This document shows, in pieces, positions 5,771 to 46,640 of a stretch of 47,061 nucleotides of DNA. The number at the start of each line of letters is the position of its first letter. The first letter of the stretch is position 1. The notes under the pieces were generated by a model. The model saw nothing but the letters and a program-made list of their open reading frames with translations, ran no database searches and was not told the origin of the DNA. This stretch comes from an uncultured Clostridia bacterium (GTDB lineage Bacteria > Bacillota > Clostridia > TANB77 > CAG-508). Location: contig CALXJV010000002.1 of the NCBI GenBank assembly GCA_944388715.1, positions 1-47,061 of the forward strand, written 5' to 3'. The position numbers and the translations under genes were made by a program.

Positions 5771-5827
5771 AAGATTCCTCCTTGTACTAAAAATTTATAG
5801 AATATTAATCTATCAACATTCTACCTA

Positions 5828-6268
5828 GCAATTTTGAAATTGTGAATGTTAACATTATTATTTACATCCTCAAATTTATTTTATAGAATGTATATATATT
5901 AATATTGAATGAATTTCGAATGTGATTGGAGAATGATTAGAAAATCTTAAATAATTTTTAGAACAAAAGCGACATGATTTATTCACTTTATCATTTTAGC
6001 TAACTAATATGTCGCGTTTTTGTTCGTGTGCCAATTTTACGTAAGTAAAATTGTGTACAACTAATTTTAATATATTAGAAAGTTTTTGTAACTTTCTAAT
6101 ATATTGTAAATGTTCGCGCCGAGCATAGCGAGGGCTAAGTGAAAGGGTGCCATAAAATTATTTTAGATTTTCTTATCTTTCGTATTGAGCCGAGAAATTC
6201 ATGAAATATTAATATATATACATTGTTATAAAGCATTTAAATTATAAATTGCACATATTAACCCTTAT
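5828..6268. repeat. Long imperfect foldback element E1 (core arms 5881-5960 / 6153-6231)
   Basis: Arms of about 80 nt pair at roughly three quarters of positions when aligned by eye. They enclose three internal hairpins: 5961-6025; 6032-6053; and 6069-6105 with a perfect 16-bp stem. A GC-rich block lies at 6113-6151. The element fills the whole intergenic region. Confidence 0.7.
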
Positions 6269-7930: not shown

Positions 7931-8075
7931 ATTCATTGTATTTTCAAATTATTTTCTTCTAACGGCAAGATTTTTTCAAAATAGTAATATTTCCTTCTTT
8001 TTTCATTATATCTCTCCGTATATTTTGATATTTGAATTCATGGCTAAAAAGAATTTTGCAATTCTTAAGGCGTTA

Positions 8076-8134
8076 CAAGGTCCGTCCCCTGTTCCCTGAT
8101 TTTAGGGATTTTTAGGACCGTCCCTAAATCCCTA
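8076..8134. repeat. Family B intergenic repeat, copy B1
   Basis: CAAGGTCCGTCCCCTGTTCCCTGATTTTAGGGATTTTTAGGACCGTCCCTAAATCCCTA. Its last three bases are the complement of the ftsK TAG stop codon. Confidence 0.8.
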
Positions 8135-10570
8135 TTCTGTTGTAGTACTACTTCCCATTTTAAGTTCATTTAATTTGTCTAAAGTCATTAGTACTTCTCT
8201 AGGTTTACTTCCTTGATATCCTGATATTACTCCTCTTTCTTCCATTTGGTCTATAATTCTACCAGCTCTTGCATATCCAACTTTAAATCTTCTTTGTATA
8301 AATGATGTTGATGCTTGTCCAGTTTCTACTACTGTTTGAATTGCGTCCATTAAAAATGGATCTGTTTCATCATCTTCTGATTGTTCTTGTGCTAATTCTT
8401 TATCTGTTTTATTACTATTTTCTATACTTTCCAATATGTCTTCACTATATGTAGCTGTTCCATTAGATTTTACAAAGTCTACTATTTTTTCTACTTCTTC
8501 ATCAGATACAAATGCTCCTTGTACTCTTGAAGGTTTTGGTGCTCCAGAAGGGAAAAATAACATATCTCCTTTTCCTAAAAGTTTTTCTGCTCCTACTGTA
8601 TCTAATATTGTTCTTGAGTCTACTTGTGATGATACTGCAAAAGCAATTCTAGATGGAATATTTGCTTTTATTAATCCTGTGATTACATCAACAGATGGTC
8701 TTTGTGTTGCAATTACTAGATGCATTCCTGCTGCTCTTGCTTTTTGTGCTAATCTACATATTGCTTCTTCAACATCTTTTGCTGCTACCATCATTAAGTC
8801 TGCTAACTCATCAACTATGATTACTATTTGAGGAAGTTTTCCTACTCCTTCTTCTTTTTCTATTAATTTATTATATCCTTTTAAGTCTCTTACCCCTTTT
8901 GTTGCAAATTTATTATATCTGTCATCCATTTCTTGAACAGCCCAAGCCAATGCTCCTGCTGCTTTTTTAGGGTCTGTTACAACTGGTATTAATAGATGTG
9001 GTATTCCATTATATACAGATAATTCAACTACTTTTGGATCTACCATTACCAATTTTACTTCACTTGGTTTGGCATTATATATTATACTTGTTATTATTGT
9101 ATTTATACATACACTTTTTCCAGATCCTGTGCTACCTGCTATTAATACATGTGGCATTTTTGCAATATCTGCAAGTTGTGGGTTACCTGCTACATCTTTT
9201 CCTAATGCTATTGTTAGTTTTGATTTATTGTTTTGGAATTCTTCACTTTCTAGTACTTCTCTTAAGTGTACTGTTTCTTTTTCTTTATTAGGAACTTCAA
9301 TTCCAACTGCTTGTTTTCCTGGTATTGGTGCTTCTATTCTTATTGTTTCTGCTGCTAGATTTAGAGCTATATCATCTGCTAAATTAGCAATTTTACTAAC
9401 TCTTACACCTTCTGCTGGTTTTAATTCATATCTTGTAATTGCTGGTCCCACTGAAACATTTTCTACTTTTGCTGATACTCCAAAACTGTATAGGGTTTTT
9501 TGTAATTTAGTAGCTGTGTCTGTTAATGCTTTTGCCCCTCCTTTTAGTGGTTTTGCTTTAGCTTTACTTAATAATTCTACTGGTGGGTATTCATAATGTT
9601 CATCTTCAACTACCATTGCATGTTCTAGTTGAAGAACTTCTCTTTTCTTTTCTTCTTTCTTTTCTTCTTCTTGTTTAAATAAATTGTTTTCTATAACATC
9701 TGGTTCCATTTGTTTTTTACTATCTCTTGTTAATGGTTCTAAATCATCTTTTGAATGATCATATTTCTTTAATTTTTTTGGATTTTCTTGTTCATCTAGT
9801 ATTCTTCCTCCAAAATTAATCTTTATTTGGTTTTCCATTTGTTCTTTTTCTTCTTTTGCTTTTGCTATCTTCTCTGCTTTTATTCTTGCTCTTTCTTCCA
9901 TTCTTTCTTCACGTTCTCTTTTTCTTCTCTCTTGAGCTGTTTCTTTTATATTTTCTTTTTTTCTTTCTTCTCTTTCTTCTAGTCTTTCCTCTTTTCTCTC
10001 TTCAAATCTTTCTACAAATCTATTTATTAAATCTGTCATACTTATTCCAAATGTGAAAACTAAAAATACAACCGCTATTCCTATACAAAGTATTACTGCT
10101 CCGACATCTCCTAATAATTTTGCTAATGGAACTGCTGCTACTGCACCTATTGCTCCTCCTCCTTTACTTTGTGAGCCTAAATAGTATGCATCTTTTACTA
10201 CTTCTGATAGTTCTTTTCCTGATTGTAATTCTCCACTAGAAATCTGGAATACACTAAACAAGACAGATAAACTGACAATAAATATTACATATTGTATAAG
10301 TTTAGATGTCAATGTGTCTCTTTCATCTGTTGCAAGTTTTATTCCTATTGCAAAACCTCCTATTGGAAGTATATATTGCATTATCCCAAACATTCCTCCT
10401 AATATCTCATTTAATTTTGCACCAATTACTCCAGATTTAGTATATATTAAAACACCTAATAATAAACTTAGCATAATTATAACTACAATAGCTAAATCTA
10501 ATTTACTTGCTGTTTTTTTGCTTTTTTTGTATCTTCTTTTTTTTGCCATTTCTATCATCCCTTCTGCCAC
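8132..10570 (-). CDS. ftsK: DNA translocase FtsK/SpoIIIE
   Basis: N-terminal transmembrane (TM) segments, a K/E-rich linker, Walker A GSTGSGKS, and a C-terminal winged-helix gamma domain ([22 protein letters not shown]). The true start may be the ATG at 10549 (MAKKRRY). Confidence 0.9.
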
Positions 10571-13326: not shown

Positions 13327-13630
13327 GGATGTACGTCGCCAATTTCATTAAGTTAAATATTGTAAAAAATGCTATAAGGGAAATATATAATATAAAAAAT
13401 GAACGATTTTGCGTATCTAAATTTGAATTAGAAATTCTTAAAGAAAAAAAGGTGTGATATGCACGGTACTCTCGATAAGAGAGGGTCTGAGTGCAAGAAC
13501 ACCTCTTTTTCTTTCAGAATTTCTTTGAAAATTTAGCTTATACAAAATTGTGAATGACTTTATATTATATATTTCCCTTTTAGTCTCATTCTTTACTAAC
13601 CATTAACTTATTGAAATTGGCGACATCGCC
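13327..13630. repeat. Long imperfect foldback element E3
   Basis: Arms of about 120 nt (13334-13455 / 13499-13628) pair around the GC-rich apex GATATGCACGGTACTCTCGATAAGAGAGGGTCTGAGTGCAAGAAC. The arm sequence resembles E1. Confidence 0.75.
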
Positions 13631-15090: not shown

Positions 15091-15134
15091 TGTGTCCCTT
15101 TTGGACATTTTTTGTCCATTTTAACACGTCCCCA
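15091..15134. repeat. Solo arm of the GGGGACGTG palindromic repeat
   Basis: TGTGTCCCTTTTGGACATTTTTTGTCCATTTTAACACGTCCCC matches the right arm of the 31704-31820 palindrome at about 40 of 43 positions. It overlaps the last codons and stop codon of miaA. Confidence 0.75.
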
Positions 15135-16047
15135 ATGACCTAATGATAATTTCAATGTTTCTTTGTATACCATCTTCTGCATTTAGCCATATTGTTTGTT
15201 TATTTTTCCTAAACCACGTCAATTGTCTTTTTGCATATCTTCTAGTTTCCATTTTTATTTTTTCTATCATTTCTTCTTTTGTATATATTCCATTAAGATA
15301 ATCTACAACTTCTTTATACCCTAATCCTTGCATTGCTGTTGGGAATTTACTGTATTTATTTAAAATTTTTTTTACTTCTTGTATTAATCCTTGTTCAAAC
15401 ATAATATCTACTCTTTTATTTATTCTTTCATATAGCTTTTCTCTATCCCAGTTTAATGCAAATACTTTATAGTCATATTCTACTTCTTTTTTTCTAGATT
15501 CAATTTCTTGTTCTGTTTTTGTTTTTCCTGTTGCATGATAAATTTCTAACACGCGTAATATTCTTTTTTTATCAGTGGGACTTATTTTTTCTATTGCTTT
15601 TGCATCTATTTGTTTTGCTTTTTCATATAATGTTTCTAGTCCTTTTTCTTGAACTTCCTCTTCTAATTTTTTTCTATATTCTTCATCTAATTTTATATCT
15701 TGATATTCAATTTCATAAATCAAACTATCTATATATAGTCCTGTACCGCCTACAACAATTGGATTTTTTCCTTTTTCTATAATTTCTTTTATTGCTTTTT
15801 TGGCATCTTTTTTATAATCTGCCACACTGTATCTTTTTTCTGGTGATACATATCCTATCAAATAATGCTTTATTCCTTGCATTTCCTCTAGTGTAGGCTT
15901 TGCTGCCCCTATATTCATGTCTTCATATATTTGCATTGAATCACATGATACTATTTCTCCATTTATTTTTTTTGCTAGTTCTATTGATAAAGCTGTTTTT
16001 CCTGATGCTGTTGGTCCACATATTACTATTACTTTATTTTTCTGCAT
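15121..16047 (-). CDS. miaA: tRNA dimethylallyltransferase MiaA
   Basis: VIVICGPTASGKTALSIELAK P-loop and full-length MiaA-like sequence. The start was moved to the ATG at 16047, which follows GAGGTG. Confidence 0.9.
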   Translation of the reverse strand: MQKNKVIVICGPTASGKTALSIELAKKINGEIVSCDSMQIYEDMNIGAAKPTLEEMQGIKHYLIGYVSPEKRYSVADYKKDAKKAIKEIIEKGKNPIVVGGTGLYIDSLIYEIEYQDIKLDEEYRKKLEEEVQEKGLETLYEKAKQIDAKAIEKISPTDKKRILRVLEIYHATGKTKTEQEIESRKKEVEYDYKVFALNWDREKLYERINKRVDIMFEQGLIQEVKKILNKYSKFPTAMQGLGYKEVVDYLNGIYTKEEMIEKIKMETRRYAKRQLTWFRKNKQTIWLNAEDGIQRNIEIIIRSLGTC

Positions 16048-16474
16048 CTTGCACCTCATTATATATATTTATTATTCCTTCTTGTGTACTTTTTAGATAT
16101 CCTTTTTCTGCAAATATGCATATTACAAATATTATCAAAATTATTACTATTCTTTTTTTAGCTTGGTCTTTTTCTATTTCTTCTTCAAGTATTTTATCAA
16201 ATAAATTTGCTATAAATGGTAAAAATATCAAAGAATTTAGACCTGTAAAAATGATAAGTAATGTATTTTTTACTGTCTTTTGAATTTCTTCGCTTGGATA
16301 TATAACATTTGTATTAGAAAAATTATATATCAATAATGTTATTAAATATATGACTAGCAAGCCAACTATTATGAAAATAATTTTTCTTGGTTTTTCTATA
16401 TTACCTAGATTATGCCATATCCATATAATGCTGATTATAAATATCAGAACTGCTACAATTGTAATTACTGTCAT
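16034..16474 (-). CDS. Small polytopic membrane protein, unknown function
   Basis: 146-aa ORF with about four hydrophobic segments, sited between mutL and miaA. Confidence 0.55.
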   Translation of the reverse strand: MTVITIVAVLIFIISIIWIWHNLGNIEKPRKIIFIIVGLLVIYLITLLIYNFSNTNVIYPSEEIQKTVKNTLLIIFTGLNSLIFLPFIANLFDKILEEEIEKDQAKKRIVIILIIFVICIFAEKGYLKSTQEGIINIYNEVQDAEK

Positions 16475-22807: not shown

Positions 22808-22833
22808 TTGTATCACCTCCAAGATTTTGGATG

Positions 22834-22895
22834 AAACGTTAGGGACGTGCTAAATCGTACCAAAATGGAACGATTTAGCACGTCCCTAACGTTCC
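22834..22895. repeat. 63-nt palindromic repeat, family A1, copy 1
   Basis: AAACGTTAGGGACGTGCTAAATCGT-ACCAAAATGGA-ACGATTTAGCACGTCCCTAACGTTCC, sited between the ABC ATPase stop codon and the permease RBS. Confidence 0.9.
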
Positions 22896-22897
22896 AT

Positions 22898-23599: not shown

Positions 23600-23615
23600 A
23601 ATAACAACTCCTCCC

Positions 23616-23671
23616 GGGATTAGGGGACGTTCCTTCAATCCCTGTTTTTAGGGATTAGGGGACGGACCTTC
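23616..23671. repeat. Family B intergenic repeat, copy B2 (inverted relative to B1/B3)
   Basis: GGGATTAGGGGACGTTCCTTCAATCCCTGTTTTTAGGGATTAGGGGACGGACCTTC. Its reverse complement aligns with B1 and B3. Confidence 0.8.
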
Positions 23672-23863
23672 TATTATTATATTTATTTTTTCGTTATTCT
23701 TTCCTTTTTTGGATATTATATCACATCAATTTTAAAAGTTGAAGGAAAATTTTATTATTAATAATAAAAATTAAATAGAATTATATAAATTCATAAAATC
23801 TTAACTTTTTTATTATTGTAAAAACATATTTATTGATATATAATTGAAAAAAAGAATATAGAG

Positions 23864-30517: not shown

Positions 30518-30724
30518 TTCTACCTCCTTTTTATGAATCTAGGATTTCCAAATTCCGACAATATTATACATTATTATTTGCTTTATGTCAATCAGATTAT
30601 TCATACTATAACTTAACCCTCTTGAAGTTTTTTTTGTTTAATGTTATTATATTTCTAATAGGATATACAAAAGTCATTAAAATTTCACGTAAGTATCCTA
30701 TAATATAAATACAATACATTCAAA

Positions 30725-31693
30725 ATGAAGGGAATGATTTTTTATATGAAACAACCAGAATTCGATTTTTATGATAAAACAAGTCTTAAATCATACAATT
30801 TAGATAAAACCATGAGATATCAATTAGACATGTTAGACACACTAGATGTTTTCACAAGAAAACACTGTGAAAATGTAGCCTCTTTAACTTGTAGGCTTTG
30901 TGAATATTTACACTGTAACAAAGGTTTTACAGAATATTGTACAATATGTGCATATTTACATGATATTGGAAAATTATTTATACCACCTTCAATATTACAA
31001 AAACCTGGAAAATTAACTGATGAAGAATATGAAGTTATGAAAACACATACTACTTTAGGCTATGAAATGTGTATGAAGGATTTAAAACTACGACCTTATG
31101 CAGCTGGTCCTTTATACCATCATGAAGCTTTAAATGGTTCAGGTTATCCTCAAGGTTTGACCAAAAAGGATATTCCTTATGAAGGTCAAATTATAAGAGT
31201 TGCAGATGAGTATGATGCCATTGTAAGTAAAAGACAATATAAATCCCATGTTGGTATATCTGATACATTAAAAATTTTAATTGATGAAACAAAACCTTCT
31301 GTTACTCCAGACTACTCTGGAAGCTTGGGCCATCTTGCAGAAGAAGTTAAACTTGGTAAAAGTAATGCTGTTATAGTTCGTACTTTATTTAAAGTTGTTA
31401 TTGATGATATTGGTTACGAAATTACTTGTACTCAAGGTTATCTTGATTCTTTATCTGATGATATGAAAAGATTTAAAAAGATGGAACAATATAAAGAAAA
31501 AATGGATAAAGCTAAAAAAGATAAAGATAAAAATTATTACTTAGAAGGTATTAAAATATTATTAAAACCTGGTGAAACAGTAGAAAATTTTGAGCAAATT
31601 CATCAAGAATATATTGAAGCTTATGATACAAGAAAAAAAATTATTGATAATCTATATAGTGAAATTAAAAATATTAAAAAATTAAAAGTTTAA
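30725..31693 (+). CDS. HD-GYP domain protein (cyclic-di-nucleotide phosphodiesterase family)
   Basis: YLHDIGK, HHEALNGSGYPQGL and RVADEYDA motifs. The alternative start at 30746 (MKQPEF) is also possible. Confidence 0.8.
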   Translation: MKGMIFYMKQPEFDFYDKTSLKSYNLDKTMRYQLDMLDTLDVFTRKHCENVASLTCRLCEYLHCNKGFTEYCTICAYLHDIGKLFIPPSILQKPGKLTDEEYEVMKTHTTLGYEMCMKDLKLRPYAAGPLYHHEALNGSGYPQGLTKKDIPYEGQIIRVADEYDAIVSKRQYKSHVGISDTLKILIDETKPSVTPDYSGSLGHLAEEVKLGKSNAVIVRTLFKVVIDDIGYEITCTQGYLDSLSDDMKRFKKMEQYKEKMDKAKKDKDKNYYLEGIKILLKPGETVENFEQIHQEYIEAYDTRKKIIDNLYSEIKNIKKLKV

Positions 31694-31703
31694 TAGGTTA
31701 ATA

Positions 31704-31820
31704 GGGACGTGTCAAAATGGACAAAAAATGGTCAAAAGGGACAGGTCAATAAGCTACTAATCTTTAACAACTATTGACCTGTCCCTTTTGACCATTTTTT
31801 GTCCATTTTGACACGTCCCC
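31704..31820. repeat. 117-nt palindrome with perfect 48-bp arms (family A2)
   Basis: 31704-31751 is the exact reverse complement of 31772-31819, with a 20-nt spacer. It lies between the convergent HD-GYP and mazF genes. Confidence 0.95.
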
Positions 31821-31830
31821 AACAACCCAA

Positions 31831-32181
31831 TTATTCTTCCAGCCCAAAGCTTACTCCCAAGGCATTGTTTACTTCATTAATTATTCTTTCGTCATCTATA
31901 TGACCTATTTTTTCTTTTAATCTACTTTTATCTATAGTTCTTATCTGTTCTGCTAAAACTACAGAATTGTTTTTTAATCCACAGCTTTCTGAATCAATCT
32001 CTATATGTGTTGGTAATTTATTTTTTCCTGTCTGTGAAGTTATTGCTGCTGCAATTACTGTTGGACTATATTTATTTCCTAAATCATTTTGTATAATTAG
32101 TACTGGTCTTACTCCTCCCTGTTCAGAACCTACTACTGGGCTTAAGTCTGCATAAAACATATCTCCTCTTTTTATTACCAT
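31831..32181 (-). CDS. mazF: MazF/PemK-family endoribonuclease toxin
   Basis: [32 protein letters not shown]...[10 protein letters not shown]...LPTHIEI...[16 protein letters not shown]. The start was moved to the ATG at 32181, 8 nt after AGGAG. Confidence 0.85.
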
Positions 32182-32255
32182 TTTTTTCACTCCTAATACT
32201 GTTATATTATCAAGTATGTGTTTTATTTTAAATATTAGTCATAGTAAAGTTATAA

Positions 32256-32861
32256 TTATTTTAACTTCACTTCTCTATATAATATGTAAACTGATGTGTT
32301 TTTGCTATTATCTTTTATTTCCATTTTAGTAGGTTTACCTGTTTTTTTATCTATATATAATGTTTGATATCTAGTATATTTATTATTTTCATTTTCTGTA
32401 TTTAATATTATTTCATCATCATCTTCTTCATATATTTGTTTTTTATTTAATTTATAATTTTCTATAAATGTATTTAAATCTAGGCAATTGTCTGTCATAT
32501 ATTCATAATCATTATATATTTTTGACATATTTATTTTACTATTTTCAACTTTTAATTCATTATCTTTTTTAGTGATTTTTATTCCTTGTATATTTTCTGG
32601 TTCTATTATTTCTTGTTCTGATATATCTGGAAATATGTATTTTTGTTTAATCGTATATCTATTAGTATTTTTATTACTCTTAACTTCTACTTCTATTACT
32701 GTTTCATATGAACTAATATTTAAAATATTATCAATTATTTCTTGACTAGTACTATTATTTCCAATTTTAAGTTTTTTACTCTTATTTATATAAAAAAATA
32801 TGCAAATACAAATTATGATTATAATAATAACTATTATTATTTTTCTTAATAATTTACTCAA
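32256..32861 (-). CDS. Membrane-anchored LolA-fold-like protein (YdcC/GerS-like)
   Basis: 201-aa ORF with a TTG start after AGGAGG and an N-terminal TM segment. The beta-rich body carries the ...SYETVIEVEVKSNKNTNRYTIKQKY... pattern. The assignment rests on pattern and synteny memory only. Confidence 0.4.
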   Translation of the reverse strand: MSKLLRKIIIVIIIIIICICIFFYINKSKKLKIGNNSTSQEIIDNILNISSYETVIEVEVKSNKNTNRYTIKQKYIFPDISEQEIIEPENIQGIKITKKDNELKVENSKINMSKIYNDYEYMTDNCLDLNTFIENYKLNKKQIYEEDDDEIILNTENENNKYTRYQTLYIDKKTGKPTKMEIKDNSKNTSVYILYREVKLK

Positions 32862-33941: not shown

Positions 33942-33964
33942 TTTTTCTCCTTTAAAAGACAAAG

Positions 33965-34086
33965 TGGGACAGGTCATAAAATGTATTTTTATTTCGACAA
34001 AATGTGACAAATTTTATTATTAGAAATATAATAAAATCAATAATTTTGGATTTGACTAGTAAAAATACATTTTATGACCTGGTCCA
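33965..34086. repeat. Inverted-repeat element (family A3) with GGGACAGGTCAT termini
   Basis: TGGGACAGGTCATAAAATGTATTTTTA (33965-33991) pairs with TAAAAATACATTTTATGACCTGGTCCA (34060-34086) at 25 of 27 positions. The ~68-nt centre contains GACAAAATGTGACAAA. Confidence 0.7.
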
Positions 34087-34096
34087 TATTGTCTTT

Positions 34097-35203
34097 TTAT
34101 TGTACAAATATTGTTTTTTTTCTTTTTCCACTTATATTTAATAAAAGTCCTATACATATAAAGTTTGTAATTAGTGAACTTCCTCCATAACTTATAAATG
34201 GTAATGGTACACCTGTTATTGGTAATAGTCCCATAACCATACCAATATTTTCTAAGACATGGAATAGAAATATTCCTGTAATCCCAATAGCAATTAACGA
34301 ACCTGCTCTATCTTTAGCTGTTTTTGCAATATAGATACATTTAGTTATCAAATATACATATAGTAATATTATTCCTCCAGCTACTATAAATCCCATTTCT
34401 TCTCCAATAACAGAATATATAAAGTCTGTTGTTTTAGGATATAAGAATCCTAGCTGTGTTTGGTTTCCTTTTAATAATCCCATTCCTGTTAGTCCGCCTG
34501 AACCTATTGCTATTTTTGATTGGATTATATTATATCCTGATCCTCTAGGGTCTGATTCTGGGTTTAAAAATACGTCTATTCTTTCTTTAGCATGTTCTGG
34601 TAACACAAAGTTATATAATAGTGGTACTGCAATTACAATTAGTAAAATTGTTCCTATAATATATTTTTTATCTAGCCCTGCTGAAAATAGCATAAGTGCC
34701 ATCGCTACTATATATGCTAATGCTGTTCCATAGTCTGGTTGCATAACTATTAATAAAATTGGTACTCCCACTACTGCTAATGCTATTGGTAATCTACTTA
34801 TTCTATTTATTTCATCTTGCCCTTTATGTTGTATTTTTAAAATTGTATATGTTAAAAATAGAATTACAAATACTTTGGCAAATTCACCAGGTTGCAATGA
34901 AAACGCTCCTATATTAAACCAGCTTGTGGCTCCATTAATTGGAGATGTAAATAATACTCCTATTAATAATATTATAAATATGCCATATAATACTGGTGAT
35001 GCTTTTAATAATAAATTGTAGTCTATAAACATTACTATTACCATAGCTATTAAACTAACTACAAGCCATATTATTTGCTTTGTAAATTCATCATATTCAG
35101 TTTCTTGTGTGGCAGAAAATAATGCAACTATTCCTATTATACACAGAATAATTGCAGTAATTAAAATTCCCCACTCCATATTTTTTAATTCTCTTTTTCT
35201 CAT
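34097..35203 (-). CDS. rodA: SEDS-family peptidoglycan polymerase, RodA-like (FtsW/RodA/SpoVE)
   Basis: Polytopic protein with the GYNIIQSKIAIGSGGLTGMG and PKTTDFIYSVIGEEMGF blocks. It sits downstream of minDE. Confidence 0.8.
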   Translation of the reverse strand: MRKRELKNMEWGILITAIILCIIGIVALFSATQETEYDEFTKQIIWLVVSLIAMVIVMFIDYNLLLKASPVLYGIFIILLIGVLFTSPINGATSWFNIGAFSLQPGEFAKVFVILFLTYTILKIQHKGQDEINRISRLPIALAVVGVPILLIVMQPDYGTALAYIVAMALMLFSAGLDKKYIIGTILLIVIAVPLLYNFVLPEHAKERIDVFLNPESDPRGSGYNIIQSKIAIGSGGLTGMGLLKGNQTQLGFLYPKTTDFIYSVIGEEMGFIVAGGIILLYVYLITKCIYIAKTAKDRAGSLIAIGITGIFLFHVLENIGMVMGLLPITGVPLPFISYGGSSLITNFICIGLLLNISGKRKKTIFVQ

Positions 35204-42259: not shown

Positions 42260-42318
42260 CAAAGTCCGTCCCCTAATCCCTGTTTTTAGGAATTTTTAGG
42301 ACCGTCCCTTAATCCCTA
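42260..42318. repeat. Family B intergenic repeat, copy B3
   Basis: CAAAGTCCGTCCCCTAATCCCTGTTTTTAGGAATTTTTAGGACCGTCCCTTAATCCCTA. Its last three bases are the complement of the spo0A TAG stop codon. Confidence 0.8.
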
Positions 42319-43140
42319 TGCTGATTTTAATTCTAGGCGTAACTTGTCAGCTATCATTGCTATAAATTCGCTATTAGTTGGCTTTCCTTTTACTGCTGAA
42401 ATTGTATATCCAAATATATTTTCTACTACTTCCTGTTGTCCTCTTCCCCATGCTACTTCTATAGCATGACGAATTGCTCTTTCTACACGACTAGGAGTTG
42501 TATTAAATTTGTGAGCTATTTGTGGATATAAACTTTTTGTTATTTGATTAATTACATCAATATCATTTACAACCATTATTATAGCCTCTCTTAAATACTG
42601 ATATCCTTTTATATGTGCTGGTACACCAACTTCATGAATTATATTTGTTACTAGTGCTTCTAAATTTTCTTCTGTTTTAGTACCATCTTGAGAAATTTCT
42701 ATATACTGAGGTTTTGATTCTCTTGATATAAAATTGTTATTAGTATTTTGCGTTGCTGGTTTATAAAATTTAAATTCCCTAATTCTTTGTATTAATACTT
42801 CAATGTCAAATGGTTTTACCACATAGTATTGTGCTCCTAATTCTATAGCTCTTTGAGTTATTTTATCTTGTCCAACCGCTGATAGCATTATGCAAATTGG
42901 ATTTTTACTTATTTTTATTTTATTAATATTTTCTAAAACACCTAATCCATCTAAATGTGGCATAATTACATCTAATAAAATTACATCTGGTACTGTATTT
43001 GCAATTATATCTATCACTTCTGTTCCATCTTTGGCTCTTGCTATAACCTCCATATCTTCTTGTGCATCAATATATGATGCTAATGTCTGACTGAATTCTT
43101 GATTATCATCTGCTATTAAAACTGTAATCTTTTCTTTCAT
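42316..43140 (-). CDS. spo0A: Sporulation master regulator Spo0A
   Basis: Receiver domain (LIADDN...[14 protein letters not shown]) plus the Spo0A-specific C-terminal DNA-binding domain ([28 protein letters not shown]). Confidence 0.93.
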
Positions 43141-45327: not shown

Positions 45328-45341
45328 GAAAATTCCTTTCT

Positions 45342-45404
45342 GGAACGTTGGGGACGTGCTAAATCGTACCAAAATGGAACGATTTAGCACGTCCCCAACG
45401 TTCC
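45342..45404. repeat. 63-nt palindromic repeat, family A1, copy 2
   Basis: GGAACGTTGGGGACGTGCTAAATCGT-ACCAAAATGGA-ACGATTTAGCACGTCCCCAACGTTCC with perfect 26-bp arms. Confidence 0.9.
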
Positions 45405-46640
45405 ACTATTTTTCATTTCTTCTATTGCTTTTAATACGCCATATTTCCCATATTCATATGTTAATCCGCCTTGCATATATGCTATATATGGTTCTCTTAA
45501 TGGTCCATCACAACTAAGTTCTATTGTTGAACCTTCTGTAAATGTTCCCGCTGCCATTATTACTTCATCCTCATATCCTCCCATAGGACTTGGCTCTGGT
45601 ACAACATTTGAATCTATTGGTGATCCCTTTTGTATTCCTTGACAAAATTTAACTAATTTTTCTGCTGTTCCTAAATTTATTGTTTGTACTATATCTGCTC
45701 TTTCTTCATCATATTTAGGCTCTACATCATATCCTAACTCTTCTAAAATGCTACTAGCAAATATTGCCGTTTTTACACTACTTGCTACAACTTGTGGTGC
45801 AAAAAATAATCCCTTTAATAAATTTGTATTTTGGTTTAATGATGGACCTATTTCTTTTCCTATTCCTGGTGCTGTTAATCTTTCTGCACATAATTTAATT
45901 AGATGTTCTTTTCCCACTATATAGGCACCACTTGTTGCTATTCCTGCTCCTAAATTTTTCATTAAAGAGCCCACTGCTATATCAGCACCTACTTCTATTG
46001 GTTCTCTATCTTGAACAAATTCTCCATAACAATTGTCTACCATTATAATTACTTCTTTGTTTACTTCTCTTATTGCTTTTATTACTTTTTCTATTTTTTC
46101 TATTGTTAAACTTTTTCTTGTTGAATATCCTCTTGATCTTTGAATTTCAACTAATTTAACATCTTTTTTGGCTAATCTTACTTTTATTTTTTCTATGTCA
46201 AAGTCATTATTTACTAATTCTATTTGTTCATATTTTATACCATATGCTTTTAAAGAACTTTCACTTACTTCTTTTCCTATTCCTATTACTGTTTGTAATG
46301 TGTCATATGGTTCTCCTGTTATGCTTACCATCATATCATTTGGACGTAATAATGCAGATAGAGTTATCGCTAAAGCATGTGTTCCTGATATAAATTGTGC
46401 TCTAACTAGACTGTCTTCTGCTTTAAATATTTTTGAATATATTTCTTCTATTTTGTTTCTTCCTACTTCATCTATCCCATATCCAGTTGATGTTGCTAAA
46501 TGCATTTCTTGTAGATTACATTCTTGAAATGCTTTTATTACTTTTATACTATTTTTACTACATATTTCTTCGATTTTTTTGAATTGTGGTTCTATTTTTT
46601 TTTCTATATTTTTTGATAATTCCACTAAATCTTTATTCAT
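45384..46640 (-). CDS. PLP-dependent 'aluminium resistance'/YnbB-like (Met gamma-lyase family) protein
   Basis: STGYGIDEVGRNKIEEIYSKIFKAEDSLVRAQFISGTHAL is typical of the family. The last 6 codons and the stop codon lie inside the repeat. Confidence 0.75.
   Translation of the reverse strand: MNKDLVELSKNIEKKIEPQFKKIEEICSKNSIKVIKAFQECNLQEMHLATSTGYGIDEVGRNKIEEIYSKIFKAEDSLVRAQFISGTHALAITLSALLRPNDMMVSITGEPYDTLQTVIGIGKEVSESSLKAYGIKYEQIELVNNDFDIEKIKVRLAKKDVKLVEIQRSRGYSTRKSLTIEKIEKVIKAIREVNKEVIIMVDNCYGEFVQDREPIEVGADIAVGSLMKNLGAGIATSGAYIVGKEHLIKLCAERLTAPGIGKEIGPSLNQNTNLLKGLFFAPQVVASSVKTAIFASSILEELGYDVEPKYDEERADIVQTINLGTAEKLVKFCQGIQKGSPIDSNVVPEPSPMGGYEDEVIMAAGTFTEGSTIELSCDGPLREPYIAYMQGGLTYEYGKYGVLKAIEEMKNSGTLGTC

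Follow-up and report, generated by a model that had tools for sequence, protein, structure and literature searches.

To our knowledge, systems of REP-associated tyrosine transposases (RAYTs; REP, repetitive extragenic palindrome) and REPINs have been studied almost only in Proteobacteria, and Group 1 RAYTs (TIRYTs), as far as we know the largest and least understood group, have been reported with modest repeat families only. RAYT-like genes that have long TIRs (terminal inverted repeats) on either side instead of GTAG REPs have been named TIRtrons, and their products TIRYTs (Di Nocera, De Gregorio & Rocco 2013, PMC3733652). Many TIRtron TIRs share the word GGGGWSAS, and some TIR families are dispersed and "moderately abundant", occurring as dimers or clusters (PMC3733652). 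TIRYTs belong to subclass 2.1 of the TnpA-Y1 proteins and carry a C-terminal helix-turn-helix (HTH), and Y---NP is the signature of class 2, the RAYTs (Quentin et al. 2018, PMC6006769). They correspond to Group 1 RAYTs, occur in Clostridia and are flanked by modestly repeated 16-mers with about 12 occurrences (Bertels et al. 2017, PMC5581495). Here we analyze a palindrome at positions 31704-31819 of a 47,061-nt stretch of DNA from an uncultured Clostridia bacterium (contig CALXJV010000002.1), which as a whole is called the window below. We consider it likely that the palindrome is a non-autonomous REPIN-like element in which two TIRs of ~48 nt stand head to head, and that these TIRs are of the kind that flanks a gene for a Y1/HUH transposase in this lineage of gut Clostridia; this corresponds to the TIRtron/TIRYT class (Group 1 RAYT). 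An initial annotation, made from the letters of the window, could not place the element in any named repeat family; it can be placed, and the family fits the class described by Di Nocera et al.

The two arms (31704-31751 and 31772-31819, 48 nt each) are 100% complementary and surround a 20-nt spacer (31752-31771), as initially annotated. The element had also been described as a perfect palindrome of 117 nt. This holds for 31704-31819, but the 117th base, an extra C at 31820, faces an A at 31703. Including an imperfect outer extension (GGTTAATA... / ...CAACAACC) the inverted repeat covers 31696-31827, with 56 nt per arm at 95%. The left arm (+ strand) is composed of the outer word GGGACGTGTC, A4-TGGAC-A6-TGGTC-A4, the inner word GGGACAGGTC and AATA. 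The right arm (+ strand) is its exact reverse complement, with the C at 31820 completing the end word CGTCCCC, and the 20-nt loop AGCTACTAATCTTTAACAAC is the only asymmetric part of the element. We refer to this arm type of the window species as GGGGACGTGTCAAAATGGACAAAAAATGGTC arms; in other species the arm terminus reaches further, to GGAACGTT-R-GGGACG. Each arm contains three A-tracts (A4, A6, A4) whose centres, read off the sequence, lie 10 nt apart, in agreement with the previously noted spacing of about one helical turn. Each element contains four GGGAC words, an outer and an inner one on each arm, and this layout is kept across divergent subtypes. The inner stem GGGACAGGTCAATA/TATTGACCTGTCCC has AAAA and TTTT on its flanks.

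As RNA, the palindrome region has a predicted folding energy of -89.4 kcal/mol for the + strand and -102.4 kcal/mol for the - strand (z ~ -18), and as single-stranded DNA the palindrome folds with -58.3 kcal/mol (z -17.7; none of 200 shuffles equal), in a window with a G+C content of ~26%. There was no gathering-score match to Rfam 15 in the whole window, and E-value searches of two regions against Rfam gave only generic hairpin (miRNA-like) matches below threshold. The palindrome had no BLAST match in plasmid and phage collections, and the arm pattern had none in viral contigs. An assembly artefact is ruled out by the identical palindrome in at least 10 independent metagenome assemblies, although several contigs break inside it. 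A promoter scan found no promoter in the 20-nt loop. As a side observation, a perfect outward TTGACA ends each arm, and a weak hexamer resembling a -10 box is found in the flank at a distance of 17-18 nt (31808-31837 on the + strand, 31715-31687 on the - strand); the number of such promoter-like matches in the region is not above that in shuffles.

The arm is a multi-copy, near-identical and almost wholly intergenic repeat, and its content at one locus varies between strains. For GGGACGTG, the word at the ends of the palindrome, we counted seven occurrences in the window (15125, 22842, 22879, 31704, 31812, 45351 and 45388), with 0.05 expected. These positions include all three regions where the terminal word had been reported to recur (15091-15134, 22834-22895 and 45342-45404), but at 22842 and 22879 the terminal word reads TAGGGACGTG and not GGGGACGTG. 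Beyond the window, a 22-mer of the arm was found in 23 or more stretches of DNA in ~10 species of uncultured Clostridia represented by metagenome-assembled genomes (MAGs). In the conspecific MAG CAKNJL01, whose HD-GYP protein is 98% identical to that of the window, arms are 100% identical over 47-51 nt at many unrelated loci, and at least 18 arms with at least 95% identity were counted in the loci examined. The same two arms enclose between 20 and ~265 nt of cargo, the elements measure 82-367 bp, solo arms occur as well, and several contigs terminate inside an arm. GGGGACG/CGTCCCC words lie outside of open reading frames (ORFs) in 121 of 127 cases, in DNA that is 86% coding and in a sample that is biased towards the spacer of the palindrome. 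In the window itself all copies are intergenic, most of them located directly after the stop codons of - strand genes. The initial annotation had considered a locus-specific terminator in case no further copies existed and the position was strictly conserved in relatives; clearly neither is the case.

A RAYT-type Y1 transposase gene bracketed by arms of the family, for which a search had been suggested, is present in related species. There the arm terminus is a short local hairpin, GGAACGTT-R-GGGACGTGYCAA-ATCGTTCC, and over 115 stretches matched the consensus of this hairpin in a genome scan. In one of these, L162, a left arm, an ORF of 251 aa and a right arm form a unit of 1.2 kb that lies between ileS and a gene for an ABC ATPase. 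The ORF matches Pfam Y1_Tnp with 36.2 bits (cut-off 23) and HTH_11 with 28.5 bits (cut-off 25; residues 216-249), and profile positions 186-249 match winged HTH regulators. Across 11 aligned relatives HxH and Y---NP do not vary, and the best solved relative found with a profile of this alignment is E. coli TnpArep (PDB 4ER8; E = 8e-4), while a PDB search with the single transposase sequence found nothing. At E <= 1e-10 we collected 216 homologues of the transposase. The position between ileS and the ABC gene, together with family arms, was found in every context examined (L197, L261, L263-265, L266-269, L270-273, L274, L278, L359), and the gene is single-copy and syntenic in at least 7 related species. 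Long inverted repeats bracket it in L162, L266, L270, L274, L278, L359 and L205. In these species, arms of this type are thus the TIRs of the Y1 transposase gene.

The nearest of these TIRs, the left TIR of L263 (GGGACGTGTCAAAATGGACATTTTTTGTCCAAAAGGGACAGGAC), is ~82% identical to the arm of the palindrome when counted by hand. It has the same two-word layout, and its first 19 and last 12 nt are near-identical. One MAG has a second RAYT paralog (27% identity), with a subtype of its own, GGGGACGTTTC...GGGACACAT, on its flanks. In CASEIX the arm that flanks the RAYT has at least 13 further dispersed copies at 88-98%. Among distant metagenomic relatives with enough flanking sequence, 54 of 65 are bracketed by inverted repeats, and in about 50 of these 54 the repeats contain (G)GGGAC(G/A), mostly placed where a short hairpin has its loop. 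Decayed copies of the gene were also seen: L361-L363 (CASEPL and others) encode a 5'-truncated product of 173 aa that has no HUH region and has a shortened right arm next to it, and in L276 the left arm is lost and the right arm carries an insertion.

The likeness to TIRtrons and TIRYTs comprises the enzyme, a Y1/HUH transposase with Y---NP and a C-terminal HTH encoded by a low-copy gene (shown here in related species), the position of this gene between long TIRs, with a GGGG-A/T-C/G-A-C/G word as the inner word, instead of between GTAG REPs, and the occurrence of the TIRs as a dispersed family, often as dimers or clusters. In contrast to the present case, the published examples name no TIR families from Clostridia. 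The outer word here is GGGGACGT, and GGGGWSAS is fitted by the inner word only. With seven GGGAC-type elements in the 47-kb window, the density looks far above "moderately abundant", and the elements are nested in several layers with conserved cargo, while the RAYT locus is syntenic in the species mentioned above. Density, multi-layer nesting, allelic turnover at single loci and the syntenic RAYT locus go beyond the published descriptions.

REPIN/RAYT systems (Bertels & Rainey 2011, PMC3116915) and the REP/BIME sequences of E. coli with TnpArep (4ER8) resemble the family in that two inverted units form one long hairpin, that the units are extragenic, high-copy and mostly located after gene ends, with singlets occurring, and that their partner, a Y1 transposase inherited vertically as a single copy, lies between copies of the repeat in question. 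With BIMEs it also shares mosaic structure and tandem copy-number variation between strains, as in allele B of the spacer described below. Unlike in REPs, there is no GTAG at the ends. A unit measures ~48 nt instead of 20-40 nt and, in this species, is no palindrome by itself; the complementarity of the arms is perfect, and the RAYT belongs to a different group with an added HTH domain. CGTC-tagged REPs (PMC3733652) come to mind since the end word CGTCCCC contains CGTC and since they, too, are mostly head-to-head dimers; yet these are hairpins of 20-40 nt that have stems of 8-9 bp and end in a CCA tail, and no transposase is known for them.

The palindrome is located between an HD-GYP gene upstream (+ strand, 30725/30746..31693, 315-322 aa; Pfam PF13487 HD_5 and PF01966 HD; motif HHEALNGSGYP) and mazF downstream (- strand, 31831..32181/32190, 116-119 aa; Pfam PF02452 PemK_toxin), two convergent genes whose initial assignment the Pfam matches bear out. 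We compared the orthologous spacer across 73 species. Other GGGAC..GTCCC palindromes were found at this position in 10 of the 73, and none in sixty. The closest sister species (85-90% protein identity) have a spacer of 30-70 nt with a plain A-run/hairpin/T-run, e.g. AAAAGAGGATTTAA..TTAAATCCTCTTTT, and this plain terminator is the apparent ancestral state of the spacer.

Within the window species, among strains with identical MazF, the spacer exists in at least 4 alleles, a polymorphism of the kind that had been proposed as a check. Allele A is the 117-nt palindrome (window, L104, L105). Allele B, 201-265 nt long, is composed of AGGGATTGGGGGACGGTCCTT units, and its 28-nt tandem units vary in number (L024, L106, L107, L109, L110, and L113, where the contig ends inside the element). 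Allele C is a 30-nt stub (L108), and allele D a 75-nt hybrid in which the termini of the palindrome surround one type B unit (L111, L112). In contigs with identical HD-GYP protein the palindrome is present wherever the position is covered; in L120 and L122 it is cut off by the end of the contig, and L123 diverges after ~25 nt. L104 and further strains differ by one single-nucleotide polymorphism in the loop. In L117 the 20-nt loop is exactly inverted, and the outermost base of the right arm is altered as well, now matching the left arm. At the left junction an 8-bp unit, TTAATAGG, is present in two tandem copies (31690-31705, + strand), which include both the stop codon of the HD-GYP gene (31691-31693) and the GG with which the element begins. 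The copy number of this unit is one, two or three depending on the strain; it reflects one-sided tandem slippage and is not a target-site duplication.

Two further observations concern the neighboring genes. A YdcC-family gene directly precedes mazF with a gap of 65 nt (31831-32861), there is no antitoxin-sized ORF between them, and hence no mazE is visible beside the toxin gene. Upstream of the HD-GYP gene (~30520-30720) synteny breaks between strains: next come an HD_4 (RelA/SpoT-like) gene and aspS in the window, L104 and L105, and NUDIX and the pyr operon in L106-L112.

The substitution pattern of the arms gives some indication of how the element may be maintained. Relative to the family consensus of 12 elements, 20 substitutions are identical in both arms of an element, and 12 are found in one arm only, mostly in two rearranged copies. 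For instance, both arms of L013 show one and the same change from C to G, while in L012 and L014, from the same MAG, the arms have a C at this position. In a small internal hairpin a 5-nt loop flips between samples. Together with the inverted loop and the converted terminal base of L117, these concerted changes point to intrastrand pairing with template switching or repair, a pattern that is indistinguishable from selection for pairing.

For a REPIN-like element we propose the following mechanism. Whenever the DNA is single-stranded, e.g. on the lagging-strand template, the arms would snap into a 48-bp hairpin. The transposase would recognise the GGGGACG/GGGACA words at the foot of the hairpin and near its tip, and would cut and rejoin the strand in the manner of IS200/IS605 TnpA and of TnpArep from E. 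coli, thereby moving or copying the element. In vitro, TnpArep cuts single-stranded REP DNA and joins it again. Pairing within the strand, along with template switching or repair, would keep the arms identical, and the same process might occasionally flip the loop, delete one arm, leaving a solo arm, or let palindromes nest in the centre.

Such nesting is seen in CAKNJL01, where at four loci (L012, L013, L014, L141) the same arms enclose a composite of ~360 nt, made up of a variable palindromic layer and a conserved core of ~200 nt. The loop of the palindrome resembles the outer ends of this layer, and the palindrome may therefore be a deletion derivative of the composite, although this is suggestive only. 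We found 27 copies of the core, in L012-L014 and L134-L155. It has a conserved asymmetric centre, GCACTCAGACC-CTCTC-loop-GAGAG-TACCGTGC, with a variable apical loop, and its flanking stems covary: of 80 predicted pairs, 33 show changes on both sides. Around every copy lies an outer layer that is a perfect palindrome and is particular to that copy. The core is present in some strains, with another element at its place in others. It had no match in Rfam and may be a structured RNA. In the window it is found with its variable palindromic layer at 13335-13625 (- strand), here in a different shell with GGCGAC ends.

Several points weigh against the assignment to a RAYT of the TIRYT class. The RAYT of the window species itself was not found; P0012, P0027, P0035, P0010, P0050, P0028, P0015, P0039 and P0066 are all from other species, one being a 5'-truncated pseudogene, and the link to the enzyme therefore rests on the homology of the arms, ~82% to the nearest RAYT-flanking TIR. 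The best NCBIfam model for the ORF of L162 is the REP-associated tyrosine transposase, with 62 bits under a cut-off of 80. The arm of the window species forms no local hairpin that presents GGGGACG in its loop, unlike the arms of many relatives. The inner word (GGG(G)ACAG/GGGGACAC) fits GGGGWSAS, but the outer word departs from it at positions 7-8. Furthermore, at every locus compared the spacer was replaced and not merely interrupted, with no clean empty/filled pair; the same was seen when we compared the spacer between the HD_4 gene and aspS, where a segment was replaced. As the spacers are replaced and no target-site duplication is visible, transposition remains a proposal, and gene conversion between copies could explain part of the pattern.

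Among the other explanations we first consider that the main role of the palindrome is that of an array of protein half-sites or of intrinsically bent DNA, e.g. for a nucleoid protein or a regulator, independent of any transposase. The initial annotation had raised both, and the three A-tracts per arm phased at 10 nt as well as the four GGGAC words in a fixed layout kept across subtypes would suit either. The fixed two-word layout, on the other hand, is the one found in the TIRs that flank the RAYT gene, and in other strains the same spacer is filled by alleles that have no A-tracts or by the 30-nt stub, and therefore there is no conserved binding requirement at this site. The idea is not needed, and we regard it as improbable.

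A site-specific invertase might use the palindrome as a miniature or degenerate inverton, with the shared word GGGACAGGTCA as recombinase site. This explanation draws on the precise inversion of the loop in L117 and on a related element at 33954-34097 with 38-nt arms (33954-33991 and 34060-34097), which has GNCAAA-N-GGGACAGGTCA-TA in common with the inner end of the palindrome's arm. The recurrence of the inner word in this region (33965-34086) had been noted before; GGGACAGGTCA is exact at 33966-33976, while the partner arm at ~34075-34084 reads GACCTGGTCC and is imperfect. The 68-bp segment between the arms (33992-34059, between ftsW/rodA and dus) is invertible between strains, including strains with identical HD-GYP protein: it is oriented as in the window in L111, L114, L116 and L118, and opposite in L104/L115, L117, L106-L110 and L024. 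It contains an 11/12 sigma-70-like promoter, GTGACA-17-TATAAT, which points away from dus in the window and towards dus when flipped. In the palindrome and in this element alike, GGGACAGGTCA(A)TA borders directly on the piece that is flipped. Between ftsW/rodA and dus, nothing but a plain terminator is found in sister species. Against an inverton at 31704-31819 speaks that no serine or tyrosine recombinase was found in ~1.4 Mb of loci, and a spacer of 20 nt is too short for looping synapsis as in Hin- and Fim-type systems. The altered base in the right arm of L117 fits template switching or conversion better than a conservative crossover, small internal hairpin loops flip too, and inversion alone does not explain the dispersal. 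We hold this explanation to be quite improbable. As a separate observation, L106-L110 and L024 carry at the equivalent of 34093 three tandem GTTTGTCG units beside the right arm of the invertible element; they are absent from the window, and with a T-run and a GNC word they follow the style of the palindrome's arms.

The initial annotation had described the palindrome as a member of a dispersed MITE/REP-like family (MITE, miniature inverted-repeat transposable element). The copies, the polymorphism and the RAYT uphold the dispersed and REP-like part, but not a MITE of the DDE type, i.e. a deletion derivative of a DDE insertion sequence moved by cut-and-paste at its TIRs, which we judge very improbable. 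Like the MITEs Correia/CREE, ERIC, RUP and bcr1 the elements are small, non-coding, TIR-bounded, intergenic and strain-polymorphic, and such MITEs can act as a source of terminators or promoters. The long and perfect TIRs, the varying cargo inside them and the solo ends would suit a MITE, as would the GGGG termini, which we take to be reminiscent of the inverted repeats of the Tn3 family. However, MITEs derive from DDE insertion sequences and make target-site duplications, and at 12 full elements we found no duplication of any length, with no direct repeat of 2-9 bp in the flanks. A search of the first 0.83 Mb of the loci for large elements between matching GGGAC ends gave none, and a DDE gene was seen in no element above 400 bp with matching TIRs. 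The only protein found between such arms is the Y1/HUH transposase, and the plasmid and phage collections held no match. Queries with IS608 TnpA, YafM, Hin and XerD (approximate sequences) against the ORFs of 0.8-1.4 Mb of loci likewise gave no match in phmmer.

Further candidates were dropped: integron attC sites, as the ends do not fit RYYYAAC/GTTRRRY; CsrA GGA decoys, as the GGA words are paired within the stem; DNA-uptake sequences, as the words are almost never in genes; Tn3-type inverted repeats, as there is no 5-bp duplication; and parS, Noc and CodY boxes.

That the palindrome is simply a long, locus-specific bidirectional intrinsic terminator without mobility or family can practically be set aside, for although 60 of 73 related species have a simple hairpin at this convergent-gene position and the inner hairpin lies between an A-run and a T-run, identical arms occur at at least 18 other loci of the same species, several unrelated alleles occupy the spacer within the species, and the arms flank a transposase gene in relatives.

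As an additional function of the REPIN-like element, the palindrome probably also acts as a bidirectional terminator or insulator of the convergent transcripts, because a plain bidirectional intrinsic terminator occupies this place in sister species. Its stem offers nested layers of A-run/GC-word and GC-word/T-run, namely GUCCC-UUUU, GACCA-UUUUUU and GUCCA-UUUU, with a T-run behind the GC word of each layer on both strands. To the contrary, a consensus scan of the palindrome region reported no terminator because the loop has 20 nt, and a perfect RNA stem of 48 bp could instead be a target of RNase III. The initial annotation had likewise remarked that the stem is far longer than a terminator needs.

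More tentatively, and with considerable doubt on our side, a Group 1 RAYT/TIRYT in these gut Clostridia with small genomes of 26% GC might have built a population of REPIN-like elements that is far denser and more modular than any described so far, and which would form a genome-wide, strain-variable layer of 3'-end and promoter control instead of passive repeats. GGGGACG shells would overwrite terminators, swap alleles, flip centres and carry nested passengers; the passengers could be the invertible promoter upstream of dus and the ~200-nt core, the latter as a structured RNA or as a true recognition module. Irrespective of this idea, the enzyme, its TIRs and a large population of recently active, strain-polymorphic repeats can be studied together in a Firmicutes lineage that is abundant in gut metagenomes. 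The repeats visibly replace terminators, break assemblies and diversify the alleles of strains that are otherwise near-identical. They explain contig breaks and apparent rearrangements in MAGs of the clade and could serve as strain markers.

The remaining elements of the window belong to several subtypes. At 15093-15135 (+ strand) we found a solo right arm of the palindrome's own family, 93% identical to its arm, which provides the last codons and the stop of a miaA-like gene (15121..16059, - strand). The sister subtype GGAACGTT-R-GGGACGTGCTAAATCGTACC, whose arm type corresponds to RAYT-flanking TIRs in other species, is represented by a short palindrome at 22831-22897 between two - strand genes and by a second copy at 45341-45405 with 31-nt arms at 97%, located between a stop codon and the ribosome-binding site of the next gene. 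A third subtype, AGGGATT-GGGGACGGTCC-AATCCCT, is the one that makes up allele B of the HD-GYP/mazF spacer in other strains. Its unit at 8066-8135, with GGGGACG in a short hairpin, lies directly 3' of a - strand stop codon, two direct AGGGATTAGGGGACG units are found at 23613-23672, and another pair of units at 42261-42320 follows a - strand stop codon. Finally, the region 5771-6268 contains a second nested element with AT-rich TIRs and a GC-rich centre, which exists in three allelic states: a 93-nt solo arm, a form of ~354 nt and one of 498 nt with a central insertion of 144 nt. A core related to this element was found inside GGGGACG shells in the ftsW-dus spacer of other species (L072, L101).

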